A DNA stretch of 32,870 nucleotides from a virus (taxonomy: Duplodnaviria; Heunggongvirae; Uroviricota; Caudoviricetes), in the IMG/VR virus record IMGVR_UViG_2737471818_000001, one strand, 5' to 3'. Below the pieces are notes generated by a model that was not told where the DNA came from, did no database searches, and was given only the letters and a program-made list of their open reading frames with translations. A program made the translations under genes and the position numbers. Positions 11,457 to 25,896 of the stretch are shown piece by piece. Each line of letters begins with the position of its first letter. Position 1 is the first letter of the stretch.

Positions 11457-12094
11457 TTTGTCCCCTGCGTCCAGCTATCCCCGCCTTTAACACCGCCGTG
11501 GCCGTGGTCATCCACCTGCACACCGTTTGATTTAAACGTGCCGCCGCCGTGCTCGATGTTGCCGCTCATCTTCCCGCCCTTTTGCACCTCAAGCGTGGCC
11601 GTGGTCAGTTTGTTGGTGCAGACCACCTCGGGGGTATCGAGTGTGATACGGGTGGACGCCTTGACCAGTACCAGCGGCACAGTTGCGGTAATGGCGTCTG
11701 ACGCGGTGACGTCAGCGGTTTTAATACCACTCACCGTGAGTGACCCGCTTTCAGGCTCATACTCGATAACCGCCCCGTCAGGAAAGGAAATGTGAAGGGC
11801 ATCAGGCGAGGCCGACGGCGCGGGATGGTCATCAGAGAAAATGCCGGGCAGCACAAAAGCGGTGTCGAGCTCGCCGCCAATGGCAAGAATCAGCACCTGC
11901 TCGCCAACCGAAGGAGCCCACCAGGCACGCGAGCGACCGGCGCGGCAGGTCAGCCAGTTTAGCCAGGTGGTTTGCATCCCGCCGGTCTGGACACGGCAGA
12001 GCCCCTCATCGGGATTGACTGCAGTCACAATGCCGGTGCGGATAAGATTACGGATAGCGCGGGCGATATCCTGAATGGAATTTAAAGTATTCAT
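11453..12094 (-). CDS. V: Baseplate spike protein V, about 213 aa from MNTLNSIQDIARAIRNLIR
   Basis: Similarity to P2 gpV as recalled; ATG at 12092-12094. The track ORF extends upstream only through a non-ATG start. Confidence 0.85.
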   Translation of the reverse strand: MNTLNSIQDIARAIRNLIRTGIVTAVNPDEGLCRVQTGGMQTTWLNWLTCRAGRSRAWWAPSVGEQVLILAIGGELDTAFVLPGIFSDDHPAPSASPDALHISFPDGAVIEYEPESGSLTVSGIKTADVTASDAITATVPLVLVKASTRITLDTPEVVCTNKLTTATLEVQKGGKMSGNIEHGGGTFKSNGVQVDDHGHGGVKGGDSWTQGTK

Positions 12095-12429
12095 GGGGAA
12101 AGGATGCCGCCGGGGAAGGCCAGCGGCAATCGGGCGGGGTTTTGTGGGGGTTGAAACAACAACCAACAACCCAGAAAAACTATTTCCTAATTGCTCAATG
12201 CTTATAAGTAATTATCCAAATCCTTCCATAAGCCCCACTTACAAGCCAACAATGAACATCGTTACCACAAGTAACTTTTTGTGACCCCCTATCCAGTTAA
12301 AATAGCGCAGAATAAAGCATAAAAATTGAAACTATGGATAACCACATTGGAAAGATTTATACTTGTTAATATGTTAACCATTTGAAACCACTGCAGTTCA
12401 AACTTCTGAAAAGGAGCAATTTTCAACCT

Positions 12430-13359
12430 ATGGAAGTAACATTAAGCTTGAAAGATATTACGTCAATTATTGCAATAATCATCTCTCTTATTGCATTATA
12501 TTTTGCCGTAAGTAATTATAGGCGAAAATCCGGCACTCATATAAGAGGTCAATTTTGTATAAGTGAAAGTATAAACGCTGAAGACAAATACATCAGCAGT
12601 ATTACTTTGGAAAATTTCAAAGACAAATCCGTTATAATTTTCAAGATCTTCCTAAGAGTTGGAAGTAACTATTACATAGAGATTGATGACTTCGAGCGAG
12701 CCCCAAAAATACTAAAACCGTATGAATCCTATACTAATAACTACGACCCCGTGGATTTTTACTGTTTAAACATGAATCGTATTAATCTTAACAAACTTTT
12801 GAATTCAAAAAAAACAAAGATTAATATTGTGCTATCCACCTCTCATGGTAAGTATGTGGTAAAAGAATGGATAAATCTGTGGGATCCCATATATGATTTT
12901 TTCAAAAACCATATGACAGCTTATATCATCCCAATGACACCCATTGAAAAGGTGGGGTATTTTGGCTATAATTTCAAATACTTAGTCAAATTAAAAACTG
13001 AGGATGGATATAAAGAAACCATTCCAATTTATTCTAGTGACATTAATTACCCCAGGTTTAATAAATTTAGACTAACAGTGGAGTCACTTTCATCACGTGA
13101 AAAACTTGAAGACTTCCTAATAAATCAGATGATAATCGGAAATCTTAAATGTACTGATATTGAAGTTATCGACGCTGAACAACTAAGAAAAAGAAGTTAT
13201 CACCACGAATTTAAAGAAGAATATGAAGCAAAGCACTATAGTCTATTTTTCTATTTAGTTATTGGGAGACTATTAACCGTCTTTAGCAACATCAGGCTTC
13301 ACTTCATCAACCTCAAAAACAAAAAAAAGAGAAAACAATCCAACAATACAGACAGATAA
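12430..13359 (+). CDS. Low-GC cargo protein, 309 aa, with an N-terminal transmembrane anchor; function unknown
   Basis: ATG at 12430 preceded by AAGGAG (12411-12416); hydrophobic helix ITSIIAIIISLIALYFAV; Lys/Asn-rich; strongly AT-rich relative to flanking V and S; opposite strand to the late operons. Confidence 0.7.
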   Translation: MEVTLSLKDITSIIAIIISLIALYFAVSNYRRKSGTHIRGQFCISESINAEDKYISSITLENFKDKSVIIFKIFLRVGSNYYIEIDDFERAPKILKPYESYTNNYDPVDFYCLNMNRINLNKLLNSKKTKINIVLSTSHGKYVVKEWINLWDPIYDFFKNHMTAYIIPMTPIEKVGYFGYNFKYLVKLKTEDGYKETIPIYSSDINYPRFNKFRLTVESLSSREKLEDFLINQMIIGNLKCTDIEVIDAEQLRKRSYHHEFKEEYEAKHYSLFFYLVIGRLLTVFSNIRLHFINLKNKKKRKQSNNTDR

Positions 13360-13378
13360 TTAATTTTTATAAATAGTA

Positions 13379-13425
13379 GTAAGATGTGAACAACCATTAA
13401 ATCGTATGAATTGCTCACATCTTAC
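13379..13425. terminator. Hairpin between the cargo gene and S, possible bidirectional terminator
   Basis: Inverted repeat GTAAGATGTGA(ACAA) ... (TTGC)TCACATCTTAC with a loop of about 17 nt, placed between two convergent genes. Confidence 0.4.
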
Positions 13426-13430
13426 CCTAA

Positions 13431-13877
13431 TCACCCCAAATGCTTTACAATCAACATATCTATGAGCTGTTTATCGTCTTGGTTAAATCCGAGTAACTGG
13501 CGTTCCGGGTATTGCACGTCCTGAGCGTGAGGGTTAGGCCTGTCTTTGAGTCCGAGCTGATGAATCTGTGCAATACGTTGCACTTTGCCGGTAAACTCCA
13601 CCACAGCAGCATCATTGCGGCCACTGGCTTTCATGTAGCGACTCGTTCGCAGCTTCTGAAACATCGCCCGTTTAATTCGCCCTTTTTTTGCCCTGAGCGG
13701 CTGACGCTTTCTCTCCTGATATGGTGTGCCGTCAGGCGCTTTTTGCTGTTTGATACGTTGCTGTTGCGATTTGCGCAGTTCCTTAGCTATTTCTGCAGCC
13801 AGCTTACGCCGCGACTCTGGTGACAATGCCCCGATAAGCCCCGCAAGTTTGTCGTCAAAAGGCTTTAATTCATTCAT
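13431..13877 (-). CDS. S: Tail completion protein S, 148 aa
   Basis: Similarity to P2 gpS as recalled; synteny R-S. Confidence 0.85.
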   Translation of the reverse strand: MNELKPFDDKLAGLIGALSPESRRKLAAEIAKELRKSQQQRIKQQKAPDGTPYQERKRQPLRAKKGRIKRAMFQKLRTSRYMKASGRNDAAVVEFTGKVQRIAQIHQLGLKDRPNPHAQDVQYPERQLLGFNQDDKQLIDMLIVKHLG

Positions 13878-21048: not shown

Positions 21049-22056
21049 ATGAAAAAACAACAGAATAAACCCGCCACAACGACCGCCAGCGCGCCGCAAA
21101 AAATGGAGGCGTTCACCTTTGGCGAGCCCTCCGCCGTTCTGGATCGCCGCGATATCCTCGATTATGTCGAGTGCATCAATAACGGGAAGTGGTACGAGCC
21201 GCCGGTCAACTTCTCTGGTCTAGCAAAAAGCCTGCGAGCCGCCGTGCATCACAGCTCGCCGATTTACGTAAAACGAAATATTCTGACGAGCACCTACATC
21301 CCGCACCCGCTCCTATCGCGTCAGGATTTCAGCCGCCTCGTGCTGGATTATCTGGTCTTTGCCAACGGCTATCTTGAGAAACGCATGAGCGTTACCGGCC
21401 AGCTTTTAAAACTGGAAACATCACCGGCTAAATATACCCGTCGTGGCGTCGAGGATGGCGTTTACTGGTACATATCGAGCTTTAACAACCCCCACCAGTT
21501 CGCACCCGGCTCGGTGTTTCACCTGCTGGAGCCTGACATCAATCAGGAGCTGTACGGCATGCCGGAATATCTGAGCGCACTGAATTCGGCATGGCTAAAT
21601 GAATCCGCCACCCTGTTTCGTCGCAAGTATTACCAGAATGGCGCGCACGCGGGTTACATCTTGTACGTCACCGACGCTGCACAAAGCAGCACTGATGTTG
21701 AAGCACTACGCAAGGCAATGCGTGACTCAAAAGGACTCGGCAATTTCAAGAACCTATTTTTTTATGCACCGAATGGAAAAGCTGATGGGATCAAAATTGT
21801 GCCACTCAGCGAAGTAGCAACGAAAGATGATTTCTTTAACATCAAAAAGGTTAGTGCAGAAGATTTGTTGAGTGCTCATAGGGTACCTCCACAAATGATG
21901 GGAATTATGCCTAACAATGTTGGCGGTTTTGGTGATGTTGTAAAAGCTGCACAAGTTTTTGTCCGAAATGAGTTAACTCCTTTACAGGAACGGTTCAAAG
22001 AACTAAACAACTGGTTAGAAATGGACGTTATAAGATTTAAAAAATATTCACTTTGA
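21049..22056 (+). CDS. Q: Portal protein Q, 335 aa; the 3' ~350 bp has markedly lower GC than the rest
   Basis: Similarity to P2 gpQ along the whole protein; ATG 1 nt after the P stop; composition changes near ~21680. Confidence 0.9.
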   Translation: MKKQQNKPATTTASAPQKMEAFTFGEPSAVLDRRDILDYVECINNGKWYEPPVNFSGLAKSLRAAVHHSSPIYVKRNILTSTYIPHPLLSRQDFSRLVLDYLVFANGYLEKRMSVTGQLLKLETSPAKYTRRGVEDGVYWYISSFNNPHQFAPGSVFHLLEPDINQELYGMPEYLSALNSAWLNESATLFRRKYYQNGAHAGYILYVTDAAQSSTDVEALRKAMRDSKGLGNFKNLFFYAPNGKADGIKIVPLSEVATKDDFFNIKKVSAEDLLSAHRVPPQMMGIMPNNVGGFGDVVKAAQVFVRNELTPLQERFKELNNWLEMDVIRFKKYSL

Positions 22057-22120
22057 TTTTCGAAATAAACATCTCAACATTATATTCAGCCCTGTAACTC
22101 AAGAACCACATATAATAACG

Positions 22121-22147
22121 TCACAGCCCACTTTATCGGGGCTGTGA
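22121..22147. terminator. Hairpin TCACAGCCC-loop-GGGCTGTGA between the convergent Q and cargo operon
   Basis: 9-bp inverted repeat 5 nt downstream of the cargo partner stop, followed on the minus strand by a U-rich tract. Confidence 0.55.
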
Positions 22148-22151
22148 TAAT

Positions 22152-23264
22152 TTAACCAACCCTTGCTTTTTTATATGGACCACAACTCCAACTAAAGAAA
22201 TTCTTACCTAACTTATACCATTTATCAGAAAGCACTGGTGTTAGGTGAGGATTATATTTTTTTAAACTTCCCTTTTGTATATATTTCAATGTATTACTGA
22301 GCAAATTCTCTCCAAAACCATCATAACTTACACAAGCAGTGTTGCAGCTACAGCGTTTTGATTCGATATACTCACAATCATATTTTATATCAAGCTTCTT
22401 TAATATCGGACGCCAATATGCACCATGTTTTCGATCGAGTTCAAGGGCTGTTTTAAAATCAAAACCTTTTTTATGGTCAATGTAAAATTTTACTGATTCA
22501 TCTACGGAGCAAAGATGCTTAAAGAAAATGAGAGATTTTTCTTTTTGTTGAAATTGACTTTGACTTCTTAATACATCTTCAATTGTCGATAAAGGAACTA
22601 GAGATTCTATTTCATGTACATCTAAAATCTCAACGAAACCTGAGCGAGTGATTTGTGAGCCCAAAAAATGTGAGCAAGTACCCCCGAATGGGGCTCTAGG
22701 ATGTTTTTTGTCATTATCCACAATACAAAAAACTATCTCATTATTTTGAATTGCACGCTCGAATACATCCTTAGTACTGCCCCCACCGCCATTTAGAGCG
22801 ATAAAACCCATTTCGCAGCGAGATAAGTTAATACCTTCGGCATAATGAGCCGCTATAACTCTAAAAAAATCAGAATCCAAAGGATTTTCACATACTATTT
22901 TCGTTTTTTGCAATTGTGCCGAGTCATTAAAATACAATGGACCACAAACAAATTTAAAAGATTCACCGTTCTGAACCCATCTAAATGATTTATCACTAAT
23001 ATTAAAGTCGACAGATACATAAAATGAGACCTGGTTCAAGATAGCATAGTACTCTGTTAGACCCGACAAAGCCTCTTGCGCGTAACTTTTTGATGAAAGG
23101 CTATAAAGCCCGCTTTGATCATTGATAATAGTTTTAAAAAAAACCCTTGCCCCTATAACCAAGTGTTTTTGTTCAGCAAATGCCCGAAGTATATTCTCAA
23201 CCGCTATGGCAAATGAATTATTTAGCACCTTCTCAGGTGTCGCATTTTCGATATGAATCAACAT
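22152..23264 (-). CDS. Cargo protein, 370 aa, uncharacterized partner of the upstream ATPase; possible nuclease-like effector
   Basis: ATG 2 nt after the ATPase stop; low GC; hydrophobic strand followed by acidic motif IVFCIVDNDKK; glycine-rich LNGGGGST; C-terminal Cys cluster CSCNTAC...WSCGP. Confidence 0.75.
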   Translation of the reverse strand: MLIHIENATPEKVLNNSFAIAVENILRAFAEQKHLVIGARVFFKTIINDQSGLYSLSSKSYAQEALSGLTEYYAILNQVSFYVSVDFNISDKSFRWVQNGESFKFVCGPLYFNDSAQLQKTKIVCENPLDSDFFRVIAAHYAEGINLSRCEMGFIALNGGGGSTKDVFERAIQNNEIVFCIVDNDKKHPRAPFGGTCSHFLGSQITRSGFVEILDVHEIESLVPLSTIEDVLRSQSQFQQKEKSLIFFKHLCSVDESVKFYIDHKKGFDFKTALELDRKHGAYWRPILKKLDIKYDCEYIESKRCSCNTACVSYDGFGENLLSNTLKYIQKGSLKKYNPHLTPVLSDKWYKLGKNFFSWSCGPYKKARVG

Positions 23265-23266
23265 AA

Positions 23267-24823
23267 CTACTTACCAGAGAAAAAGCCAACCGGCCAATTT
23301 TGTAGGAAACCATTCTCGTCAAAATAAGATTTCTTAACTATGGTCTGCTGCTTTTCATCTTTTTCAAATACCAGTATTGAAATATCATCCTGTGAAAGAT
23401 TTTCATTTTCCTCAATATATTCACCAAGTGCTTCAATCATGGTCTGGCTATGTGTCTCAAAAATTATCTTCAAATCCACATTGTTTTCTTTTGCTTTAGT
23501 TACTACTTTTGCAAAAATACTTGCTAAATTATGTTGATATGACGGATGTAAATGCAATTCTGGCTGCTCAATGATAAATGTTATAGGTTTTCTAACCGTG
23601 GTAGCACGACGTTCTGTCTCAAGCCAAATGGCTGTAACTATCGGCAAAACCTGAGAGTAACCAAACCCCATATCACTAACATTATAGTTCTCACTATTTT
23701 CACCGGTATTTATTAAAATTGCAAAGTGAGAGCCACTTTGTTCAACCTTAATAATGAAATCAAAATTTAACTTTGTCCAATCTTCAAATTTTGATTTATC
23801 AGCCGGCCTTAATGAATTCAAAAGCATTGCAAGATTGGAACCAGTATGATCTATCTCATTAACCTGTAAATCTTGAAAGCGATAAAATCTTTCTGATGTA
23901 GCACGCAGTGGAGCTATGTACTTTACATTTCTGAATGAATCTGACAAGGATGTATTTATTATATCTATAAGATTATTAATATTCCATCCAATTATAAATG
24001 GATATAACTCATTCATTATTTCATCATGTTGAAGTTCAAAGTTTCTACTAAAAACTTTTTGTTCCTTGAATAGAAAAGCAACTAATTTACTAGCGTACGC
24101 TTTGGGTATAAAGCCAATTCTTTTGAATGCCTCTGTCACTTGATTTATATCAGATTTAGTATGGAAATATTTCTTTATATATTTCGCTGCTGAATCAATA
24201 AATGACAATTCTAATGCCCTGTCATGCCTAGAATGTCTCAAATAGAATGATGTGCTTGGAGGAGGACTATCTTCCTTACCCTTCAAAATTAGATTGGGTA
24301 TGAACTGCCCAAGATTTTTAGCTATTATCCCATCACGCTCTATTGTTTTATCATCTGATTCAATGAGTAACTTAACATTACTGTTCTCATCCATTGAAAT
24401 AAATATTGTTAAATCAGCCAATATAAGCTTAATCGTTTTTGTTTTTGTTTTTTTATCTTTAGAGTAAACAGTCAACTCTGCTTCAACATCTGTTGGTTGC
24501 TTTGCTAAATCAGTAAAACGATAATATGTATATCTTTGTGAAACCTCTGGCGGAATTGAGAGTGAAAAACTGAACGTAATTTCTTTTTTTTCAGAGTTTC
24601 GGGAAAGTACATCTGTAAAATCGCCAAAATCCACATATCGCCCATACCATAGTATTGGACCAGTAGTATTTTCTTCTACAGATTGACGAAGTAAAGGAAA
24701 TGTACGCAATAGGGAACTTTTACCACTGCTGTTCTTACCAACAAATACTGTAATTGGTTTTAAATCAATAAAAGTTTTGTTGACAAAGCTCCTGAAGTTT
24801 TGAAGACCTATACCCTTAATCAT
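23267..24823 (-). CDS. Cargo OLD/ABC-type ATPase (AAA_15/AAA_21-like), about 518 aa from the ATG at 24823
   Basis: Walker A VFVGKNSSGKSSLL; Walker B/D-loop FIIEQPELHLHPSYQ; H-loop ETHSQ; long insert between them. The track ORF extends to a TTG at 24895 that overlaps the cos-like site; the GGAG-preceded ATG at 24821-24823 is the likelier start. Confidence 0.8.
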   Translation of the reverse strand: MIKGIGLQNFRSFVNKTFIDLKPITVFVGKNSSGKSSLLRTFPLLRQSVEENTTGPILWYGRYVDFGDFTDVLSRNSEKKEITFSFSLSIPPEVSQRYTYYRFTDLAKQPTDVEAELTVYSKDKKTKTKTIKLILADLTIFISMDENSNVKLLIESDDKTIERDGIIAKNLGQFIPNLILKGKEDSPPPSTSFYLRHSRHDRALELSFIDSAAKYIKKYFHTKSDINQVTEAFKRIGFIPKAYASKLVAFLFKEQKVFSRNFELQHDEIMNELYPFIIGWNINNLIDIINTSLSDSFRNVKYIAPLRATSERFYRFQDLQVNEIDHTGSNLAMLLNSLRPADKSKFEDWTKLNFDFIIKVEQSGSHFAILINTGENSENYNVSDMGFGYSQVLPIVTAIWLETERRATTVRKPITFIIEQPELHLHPSYQHNLASIFAKVVTKAKENNVDLKIIFETHSQTMIEALGEYIEENENLSQDDISILVFEKDEKQQTIVKKSYFDENGFLQNWPVGFFSGK

Positions 24824-24894
24824 TCCTAGCTCCATTAGTTCAATAAAATCAATCGATTTTGAGACAATCTTAATATCTTTGACAGGCGCGCGCA

Positions 24895-24913
24895 ATGCTA
24901 TCCCCGCCTCGCC
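24895..24913. other. Candidate cos site (cohesive-end sequence)
   Basis: Minus-strand read GGCGAGGCGGGGATAGCAT matches the P2/186 19-nt cohesive end as recalled at about 17 of 19 positions and in the expected orientation between the A side and the Q side. Confidence 0.55.
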
Positions 24914-25195: not shown

Positions 25196-25435
25196 CTAAG
25201 GTCGACGCGGTGGTGGCTTCGCCATATTTGGTCGCCGAAACGCCTCAATTTTCGGATTGCTGATATCGCTGTATTTGCGGTGATTATCCCGGACGACACC
25301 GGCACACCCGACCAGTTCGTCAGGTGTCAGATTCTCGTTAATCATAATTTGTTGCAGGCGATGCACGACGGCCATCAGCTTAATGTTTTGCGTTGAATGT
25401 ACCGGCGGCACTGGCATCATTCGCATATGACTCAT
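25196..25435 (-). CDS. Hypothetical small protein, about 79 aa from MSHMRMMPVPP
   Basis: ATG at 25433-25435 forms an ATGA overlap with the upstream gene; no recognisable motif. Confidence 0.5.
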   Translation of the reverse strand: MSHMRMMPVPPVHSTQNIKLMAVVHRLQQIMINENLTPDELVGCAGVVRDNHRKYSDISNPKIEAFRRPNMAKPPPRRP

Positions 25436-25896
25436 TTTAACCACCCATTTTTTTTAGCATATGCGACCATCTTATCGGAATATTGCCAGACACCATCATC
25501 AGCGACGTAAGCCCCACCCGAAACGCCGTTAAGCGTTTCATATCCAATAGCCAGCCCTAACGGGTGTAGAATTTCGTGATTAATTCTGAAAACAAGCCCT
25601 TTCTCGCTTAACTCTTTCCAGTTCATTAGGAACATACCGCACTGGACATCTGACATCATTAACTGAAAACTCAGCATCACATAATTTTCCACCCATTCAG
25701 CTAAATCAGTAACGTTTGTCACCCTCACTGATACACGTTTCCCGGTATATCCGTTTACCGGTTCCCATTCATGCAACCCGAGAATATCACCGCTAGAATA
25801 ATCGCGGTCATTGAGACGAAATTCAGCACGTTTTTCCCGAGATATCACCGCGTTAAAATGCTCAGGTGCAATTTTTAACTGATGGATTTTGCTCAT
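25432..25896 (-). CDS. ASCH/DUF3850-like domain protein, about 154 aa from MSKIHQLKIAPEHF, with an unassigned C-terminal extension
   Basis: N-terminal pattern H.LKI.PEHF.AV.S.EKR.EFRLNDRDY..GD recalled as typical of DUF3850; ATG at 25894-25896 overlaps the A stop by 1 nt; lower GC than A. Confidence 0.6.
   Translation of the reverse strand: MSKIHQLKIAPEHFNAVISREKRAEFRLNDRDYSSGDILGLHEWEPVNGYTGKRVSVRVTNVTDLAEWVENYVMLSFQLMMSDVQCGMFLMNWKELSEKGLVFRINHEILHPLGLAIGYETLNGVSGGAYVADDGVWQYSDKMVAYAKKNGWLK

Follow-up and report, generated by a model that had tools for sequence, protein, structure and literature searches.

What is the function of a pair of genes of strongly deviant base composition placed between the cohesive-end site (cos) and the portal gene of a P2-like prophage? 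The question is raised by a virus record of the Caudoviricetes (IMG/VR IMGVR_UViG_2737471818_000001), a stretch of 32,870 nucleotides (nt) that is referred to here, in its whole length, as the window. The cassette under study consists of two minus-strand genes, one for an ATPase (23267-24823) and one for a partner protein (22152-23264), located between a P2-type cos and the portal gene Q, and the original prediction, made from the letters of the window, had considered it a candidate anti-phage defence system. The reading preferred here, to which a probability of about 0.68 is given, is that the cassette is a two-gene anti-phage module of a 'split OLD' type, carried as a moron in a cos-proximal hotspot and likely acting by abortive infection. 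Defence activity is proposed from sequence and context; the domain identities, the conservation of the active sites, the strict coupling of both genes, their mobility and their hotspot location were observed in this analysis.

The upstream gene (23267-24823, minus strand), an open reading frame (ORF) that corresponds to the RefSeq coding sequence (CDS) WP_041327814, encodes an ABC ATPase of the OLD type that carries DUF3696 as its C-terminal tail; the ATG start codon, preceded by GGAG, gives a protein of 518 amino acids (aa). Pfam searches revealed a full-length match to AAA_15 (1.3e-26; 94.6 bits, cut-off 32.1), a match to AAA_21 (8.4e-19; 69.2 bits, cut-off 27) and a match of aa 477-515 to DUF3696 (5.6e-7; 30.1 bits, cut-off 22). 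Among the PADLOC models, the top match was the NsnB protein of Menshen (5.8e-55), which was partial and covered mainly aa 277-515; other partial matches were found to PDC-M55A, HEC-03B (8.1e-37), HEC-01A (3.2e-17) and the generic AriA models, and the GajA, AbiLi and Old models scored lower. The best matches in this defence library were all ATPases of defence systems (NsnB, PDC-M55A, HEC-03B, AriA and GajA), and NCBIfam yielded sub-threshold matches only, the best one for the N-terminus being MAD3 (NF047739), with 49.6 bits against a cut-off of 420. The membership of the OLD/AAA_15/AAA_21 ABC family put forward in the original prediction was, in this way, supported by both Pfam and PADLOC.

The motifs on which that assignment had been based, namely the Walker A, the FIIEQPELHLHP segment and ETHSQ, were all present and proved to be conserved over 119 homologues sharing 40-98% identity. 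The Walker A or P-loop GKNSSGKSS (aa 29-37; 24713-24739, minus strand), with the catalytic lysine K35, appears as GkNSsGKS in the homologues; the Walker B-like strand and D-loop (aa 416-427; 23543-23578, minus strand) appear as F.IEQPELHLHP; and, in the H-loop ETHSQ (aa 456-460; 23444-23458, minus strand), ETHS is at least 95% conserved. An RQS motif and a degenerate signature, DMGfG.SQ, were further conserved elements, placed in a protein whose middle part (aa ~84-300), between the conserved catalytic parts, presented almost no conservation. At the Walker B-like site, E419-Q420 replaces the usual D-E pair, and an atypical Walker B (EN) has also been reported for NsnB (Li et al.; PMC12065111). 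In its unusual Walker B and in its signature of GxG type, the cassette ATPase resembles the NsnB described by those authors. The DUF3696 tail (aa 477-515; 23279-23395, minus strand), recognised by its Pfam match and by its conservation, carries a conserved NWPxGFF motif and may be the docking site for the partner protein, since the AlphaFold3 model of NsnB with NsnC gives this role to the corresponding tail (PMC12065111). Regarding its start, the ATPase frame is open upstream to a TTG at 24895, abutting cos, and the RefSeq annotation is inconsistent, with 547 aa in E. coli UTAK-6 (locus L009, 2667-4310) and 518 aa in E. coli EC11.

The downstream gene (22152-23264, minus strand; RefSeq CDS WP_041327812, annotated as 'hypothetical protein') encodes the partner, a 370-aa predicted effector nuclease. 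No family match was found for it in Pfam, PADLOC, NCBIfam or PHROGs, in line with the early statement that it could not be placed in a named family from its sequence, nor did a Pfam scan detect any family in any of 124 diverse members of the partner family. Sequence searches of the PDB with the partner profiles A1 and A5 returned chance-level matches only (TMH4C4, and NDUFA10 at E 0.045). Matches to GajA (E 0.027, PADLOC) and PurQ (E 0.02) were treated as noise. An exhaustive profile search revealed that this family is large, comprising at least 1,864 representatives at 50% identity, 1,420 of them at E <= 1e-10, and a word-based search had recovered only 31 relatives. Its members are nearly all full-length proteins of ~370 aa, and they span Gammaproteobacteria, Campylobacterota and Cyanobacteria.

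The AlphaFold2 model of the partner was of high confidence (pLDDT, the predicted local distance difference test, 89.8; predicted template-modelling score, pTM, 0.88), with a dip of pLDDT to 56-63 at aa 291-310. It presented an N-terminal alpha/beta domain of generic fold (aa 1-112; 22929-23264, minus strand) followed by a Toprim-like core (aa ~115-235; 22560-22922, minus strand), which was recognised by its fold and its motifs. The order of secondary-structure elements in this core fits a Toprim domain: a strand leading to E126 (IVCENPLD), a helix, a strand, a helix, a strand leading to D183-N-D185, and then a further strand. Acidic residues are placed accordingly, with E126-x3-D130 after strand 1, C180 and D183-x-D185 after strand 3, and H217-E218-x-E220 after strand 4, so that the features of Toprim at the fold level, which are a three-layer alpha/beta arrangement, a conserved Glu after strand 1 and a DxD after strand 3, are all found. 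Over 139 diverse homologues, whose median identity to the cassette protein was 25%, E126, G161, D185 and E220 were invariant, and D183 (99%), D130 (97%) and K265 (96%) nearly so. The motif IVFCIVDNDKK, singled out early on together with the C-terminal cysteines, is indeed present, and its acidic DND portion, with D183 and D185 conserved in 99-100% of the homologues, corresponds to the DxD of the predicted Toprim fold. We conclude that the partner is, as predicted from its model, a catalytically intact and highly diverged OLD-type Toprim nuclease, an assignment made because of fold and motifs and not of significant sequence homology.

Beyond this core, the partner ends in a Cys/Trp-rich region (aa 297-361; 22182-22376, minus strand), in which Cys 299, 305, 311 and 361 and the tryptophans W349 and W359, as well as W284 ahead of the region, are conserved in 83-96% of the 139 homologues; position 299 is Cys in 128 of them. 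This region is possibly a metal (Zn) site. The cysteines of the cassette protein itself are C297, C305, C307, C311 and C361. The partners of the E. coli clade carry Cys at 297 and 307 (aa 297-299 being encoded by 22368-22376), and these may act as a shifted ligand of the putative metal site.

The two genes behave as a single unit. ORF and guanine-cytosine (GC) data agree with the initial description of two tightly coupled minus-strand genes of lower GC, the ATPase stop codon being separated from the ATG of the partner by 2 nt. The partner was directly downstream of the ATPase gene, and on the same strand, in all 27 loci (27/27), and the gap between them was of 1-4 nt in 20 of the 21 distinct loci. 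Moreover, the pairwise identities of the two proteins were correlated (r = 0.99), with the partner always the more diverged.

Among 5,426 complete E. coli genomes, 40 carry the cassette, which is placed there in the A-to-Q interval of P2-like prophages. Similarly, a scan of IMG/VR viral contigs made with a 10-sequence partner alignment placed it between gpA and the portal gene in 9 of 14 contigs, even at 30-38% partner identity, and in Rahnella it also occupies the P2 hotspot. In Pectobacterium (L005-L007, 6442-9113), a copy with an ATPase 81% identical and a partner 71% identical was located in a P4-like satellite, with the Ogr/Delta gene on one side and the integrase on the other; this element also carries a primase/D5-type replication gene and AlpA. 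Therefore, the cassette moves between helper-phage and satellite hotspots. Other contexts included an integrase-flanked element beside smpB in Vibrio, and islands with BrnTA, HNH, BrxL or methylase genes in Thiothrix, a cyanobacterium and Erwinia. A megablast search against the phage collection gave no match; the known copies of the cassette come only from prophages and IMG/VR contigs. Decayed copies were also observed: in E. coli UTAK-6 (L009, 1642-2664), the partner is truncated and covers profile positions 1-338 only, and in Thiothrix unzii (L002, 5338-8001) the ATPase gene is split by an insertion sequence (IS; helix-turn-helix plus DDE_3 transposase) and the nuclease gene is intact.

In the window, the cassette region (22001-24500) presented a GC of 0.32-0.36, against 0.53-0.61 (~0.57) in the flanking structural genes, a strong deviation that marks the cassette as a moron. 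The same DNA is found in the chromosome of E. coli EC11, with 100% identity over the cassette and the same two CDSs annotated by RefSeq. On one side, the plus-strand genes P (terminase) and Q (portal) end at 22056. On the other side is the cos-type cohesive end GGCGAGGCGGGGATAGCAT (24895-24913, minus-strand reading), 72 nt upstream of the ATPase start codon. The cos-like site had been recognised by the model reader, and this 19-mer turned out to be identical at 17 of 19 positions to the annotated cohesive end of P2 (cosL/cosR), with the flank TGCGCGC common to both.

The A-to-Q interval is a documented defence hotspot, as had been argued in support of a defence role: Rousset et al. (2022) identified the regions close to cos, in P4 satellites as well as in P2 phages, as hotspots of antiviral systems, and over one third of the hotspot cassettes cloned in that study gave anti-phage activity. 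The precedent of old and tin in P2, invoked at the same time, holds for the hotspot and not for the flank of cos. In P2 (AF063097, 1-186 and 30684-33593, compared with 22057-24913 of the window), from which the cassette itself is absent, old/tin are found to the gpA side of cos, and only ~170 bp separate cos from Q, whereas the cassette occupies the Q side, that is, the opposite flank of the same A-to-Q hotspot. P2 old/tin are transcribed away from cos toward gpA and the cassette away from cos toward Q; therefore, both flanks of cos can take cargo that is read outward.

Whether the pairing had already been described, a point raised with the original prediction, received a divided answer. The pair corresponds to P2-hotspot system #36 in Table S5B of Rousset et al. 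(2022), with 105 occurrences in 18,150 loci. In a literature search with its four WP accessions, no paper containing them was found in the library searched, and the pair was neither named nor tested in any paper of that library; DUF3696 occurs in only four of its papers. The main text of the DefensePredictor paper makes no mention of Toprim, OLD or PARIS; a domain-centric E. coli screen and a Nuclease-NTPase preprint describe other systems and not this pair; and nothing relevant was found in the literature on PARIS-like and PDC-M55 systems. The pairing is thus catalogued but uncharacterised.

The characterised relatives suggest how such a pair could work. In PARIS, AriA holds AriB, which cleaves tRNA, and the AriB substitution E26A abolishes this cleavage; P2 Old is a tRNase as well; the DUF3696 tails of NsnB are predicted to clamp NsnC (AlphaFold3 model, PMC12065111); and HEC-03, composed of an ABC ATPase and a PIN protein, has been validated, with both genes required. 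By analogy, in an uninfected lysogen an oligomer of the cassette ATPase would bind the nuclease partner and keep it inactive. The variable middle of the ATPase (aa ~84-300) might then sense a product of a competing phage or a DNA or RNA structure, upon which binding or hydrolysis of ATP would release or remodel the nuclease. The nuclease would cut an essential nucleic acid, most likely tRNA and otherwise DNA, leading to the arrest of the infected cell and to an aborted infection. Transfer RNA is favoured as the substrate because AriB and P2 Old are both tRNases.

Several points weigh against the proposal of a defence module acting in this manner. Complex formation, trigger and substrate are all taken from analogy. 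HEC-01, an ABC ATPase with a separate TOPRIM protein and conceptually the closest pair tested, did not protect against any of the phages used. In Rousset et al. (2022), neither the table of validated systems nor that of additionally tested ones contains the pair, and of the hotspot cassettes that those authors cloned, about two thirds were inactive against their panel. Regarding the nuclease, the single hhalign alignment between the partner and AriB family profiles, which pairs exactly the Toprim motifs of both, is statistically weak (E 0.036, probability 1.4%). In addition, the cassette partner and its E. coli clade carry Tyr at the family-conserved Cys299.

The remaining features of the locus concern its expression and its neighbours. 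The leader between cos and the ATPase start codon (24824-24894, minus strand) contains the GGAG ribosome-binding site and is the presumed promoter region; a promoter scan found no sigma-70 consensus in this 72-nt leader, hence the ATPase promoter is inferred and not located. At the other end, a G+C-rich hairpin (22121-22147; minimum free energy -17.6 kcal/mol, z -2.3) is placed where Q (plus strand) and the partner gene (minus strand) converge, and it could therefore serve either or both of them. It had been described as a hairpin terminator; the hairpin stands, and the terminator call was not accepted by the terminator scan because no T-run follows it. It is possibly a bidirectional terminator, unlike P2 tQ in sequence. 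Beyond cos, a 76-aa ORF without a family (25196-25426, minus strand) and a gene for a 154-aa protein with DUF3850/ASCH and DUF7415 (25432-25896, minus strand) precede the replication gene A. The DUF3850 gene was counted by Rousset et al. (2022) within the same hotspot arrangement; it is frameshifted in E. coli WCHEC005784 (L008), a genome in which the cassette is intact. Elsewhere in the window, a second low-GC island (12001-13500; GC 0.32) contains a single 325-aa ORF (12382-13359, plus strand), which encodes an N-terminal hydrophobic helix, lies on the strand opposite to the surrounding tail/baseplate genes and had no match in Pfam or PADLOC. It is possibly a second moron or an accessory locus of the prophage.

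The logic of an ABC ATPase coupled to a Toprim protein is already well known, and another such pair in this hotspot is no surprise to the specialist. If active, however, the cassette would extend the ABC-ATPase/Toprim branch of bacterial immunity by a large family that has so far escaped notice. Since the four libraries searched (Pfam, NCBIfam, PADLOC and PHROGs) hold no model of the effector, genome surveys based on those models would miss the pair or report only an orphan 'AAA family ATPase'. Moreover, the cassette joins an NsnB-type ATPase, as in Menshen, with a Toprim effector in a two-gene arrangement, as in PARIS, two systems that had been treated separately. Two questions could thus be put to it: whether effectors generally dock on the DUF3696 tail, and whether OLD-type Toprim nucleases share tRNA cleavage as their output. 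The cassette is short (2.7 kb), comes from E. coli and has its own cos-proximal leader, and the cloning strategy used for the P2/P4 hotspots is directly applicable to it. The size of a family that lacks an effector model in four libraries and the architecture of a Menshen/PARIS hybrid make it a good experimental lead.

Functions other than defence have to be considered for genes of this kind. The pair could be a module of addiction or competition that benefits the mobile element and not the host, for example as a nuclease toxin with an ATPase antitoxin or as a weapon between helper phage and satellite; its carriers, which include P2-like phages, a P4-like satellite and further integrative elements, the tight coupling of a nuclease with a predicted intact active site to a putative regulator, and the existence of decayed copies (the ATPase split by the IS in Thiothrix, the truncated partner in UTAK-6) would all suit such a module. 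This role overlaps with defence and does not exclude it, some copies of the cassette have no recognisable phage genes nearby, and in PARIS deletion of either gene was non-toxic, which argued against a simple toxin-antitoxin pair there. Furthermore, the nuclease gene of Thiothrix is intact beside a disrupted ATPase gene, and an essential antitoxin role of the ATPase is hard to reconcile with that copy. We regard a module of this type as rather unlikely. A housekeeping accessory of the phage, involved in repair, recombination or replication in the manner of RecF or SbcCD and devoid of any immune role, would account for the resemblance of the ATPase N-terminus to RecF/SMC/Rad50 heads and for the proximity of cos and of the replication gene A. 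It is barely credible for a cassette of strongly deviant GC that is absent from P2 and present in non-phage islands and in satellites that do not require a function of this kind; being carried by 40 of 5,426 E. coli genomes and 105 of 18,150 P2 hotspot loci, the cassette does not belong to the conserved P2 gene set.

Within the defence reading, the pair could still be a member of a named system in disguise. PARIS, also referred to as 'class 4 OLD', is similar in having two genes, an ATPase followed by a nuclease, in having an ATPase of the AAA_15/AAA_21 OLD-ABC type, as the PARIS rule of Rousset et al. (2022) demands and as found in the cassette, and in its location in the hotspots next to cos in P4 and P2 elements. 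Its effector is also an OLD-type Toprim, in which the motifs E-x3-D, D-x-[DE] and H-x2-E follow one another as in the partner and are similarly spaced (E26-x3-D30, C87-D88-x-E90 and H119-x2-E122 in the AriB family), and the catalytic Glu (E26 in AriB) and acidic metal ligands have predicted counterparts in the partner. Nevertheless, a divergent PARIS overlooked by current profiles, which would be triggered by anti-restriction proteins such as Ocr and would cut tRNA-Lys, is very unlikely. The domain that defines its effector, DUF4435 (PF14491), was detected neither in the partner (at E <= 1) nor in the 124 family members (at E <= 0.1), and the cassette falls outside PARIS for this reason; hhalign showed no relation to single AriB sequences (B185, O42), both validated, and reached only E 0.036 with the AriB family profile. 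The partner is ~60 aa longer than AriB, with an additional N-terminal domain of 110 aa and a Cys/Trp-rich C-terminal region holding the Cys cluster, and OLD class 1 and class 2 nucleases match its structure better than AriB does. The ATPase, in turn, scores far higher on NsnB than on AriA, and its DUF3696 tail places it in an NsnB-like lineage. It is NsnB that presents the closest domain architecture (AAA_15 plus DUF3696), together with odd motifs, and a reduced Menshen was considered accordingly: NsnB and an NsnC-like effector without NsnA, the DUF3696 tails of an NsnB tetramer clamping an 'inactive PIN' N-domain. NsnB as the top PADLOC match of the ATPase (5.8e-55), the AAA_15 and C-terminal DUF3696 domains, the non-canonical Walker B and the GxG-type signature common to both ATPases, the shared gene order of ATPase and then effector, and the layout of the partner, which, as in NsnC, is a downstream effector with an N-terminal alpha/beta domain followed by a (predicted) nuclease, some NsnC nucleases being of Toprim fold, are in accordance with this possibility. 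However, no NsnA/DUF262 gene was present beside the cassette (Q, cos and DUF3850 only) or in 9 further Pfam-annotated neighbourhoods, and the cassette falls outside Menshen for lack of it; in addition, no NsnC model matched the partner and its N-domain is not demonstrably PIN-like. A reduced Menshen is therefore doubtful.

Other known systems share the logic of the cassette in part. P2 Old, GajA and the effector of retron Eco8, which represent OLD classes 1, 2 and 3, have ATPase and Toprim fused in one protein, in contrast to the separate polypeptides of the cassette, where a stop codon and a 2-nt gap divide two ORFs, an arrangement repeated in 21 distinct loci; the class-specific neighbours (a UvrD-like GajB, or a reverse transcriptase with a non-coding RNA) were not adjacent at the cassette loci examined. 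HEC-01 and HEC-03 follow the same two-gene logic of an ABC ATPase and a small nuclease, and the cassette ATPase partly matches HEC-03B and HEC-01A, but the partner matches no HEC model, and these systems were found embedded in Hma systems, whereas the cassette is found in P2/P4 hotspots. In MADS (Mad3/Mad4) and in RloA/RloB, an OLD-ABC-like ATPase is also encoded beside a separate Toprim-fold protein. The MAD3 score of the cassette ATPase is far below its cut-off (49.6 vs 420 bits), no DUF4276 or RloB match was found in the 124 partner-family members, and the cassette has no methyltransferase or type I restriction-modification context. By the tests run, the cassette is outside every named system. 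Full-length, confident matches of both proteins to a single characterised system, which the original prediction had named as grounds for calling the pair known, were not found: the partner matched no PADLOC model, and the ATPase matched NsnB, PDC-M55A, HEC-03B and AriA only in part. We hold at even odds that the cassette represents a widespread lineage distinct from PARIS, Menshen, Gabija and Old, and the founding example of a 'split OLD' arrangement in which a Toprim nuclease from a new family is under the control of a DUF3696-tailed ABC ATPase. The partner of such a lineage may bring an N-terminal domain for docking and a metal site of the Cys4 type, and the system may respond to its own trigger and act on its own nucleic-acid target.

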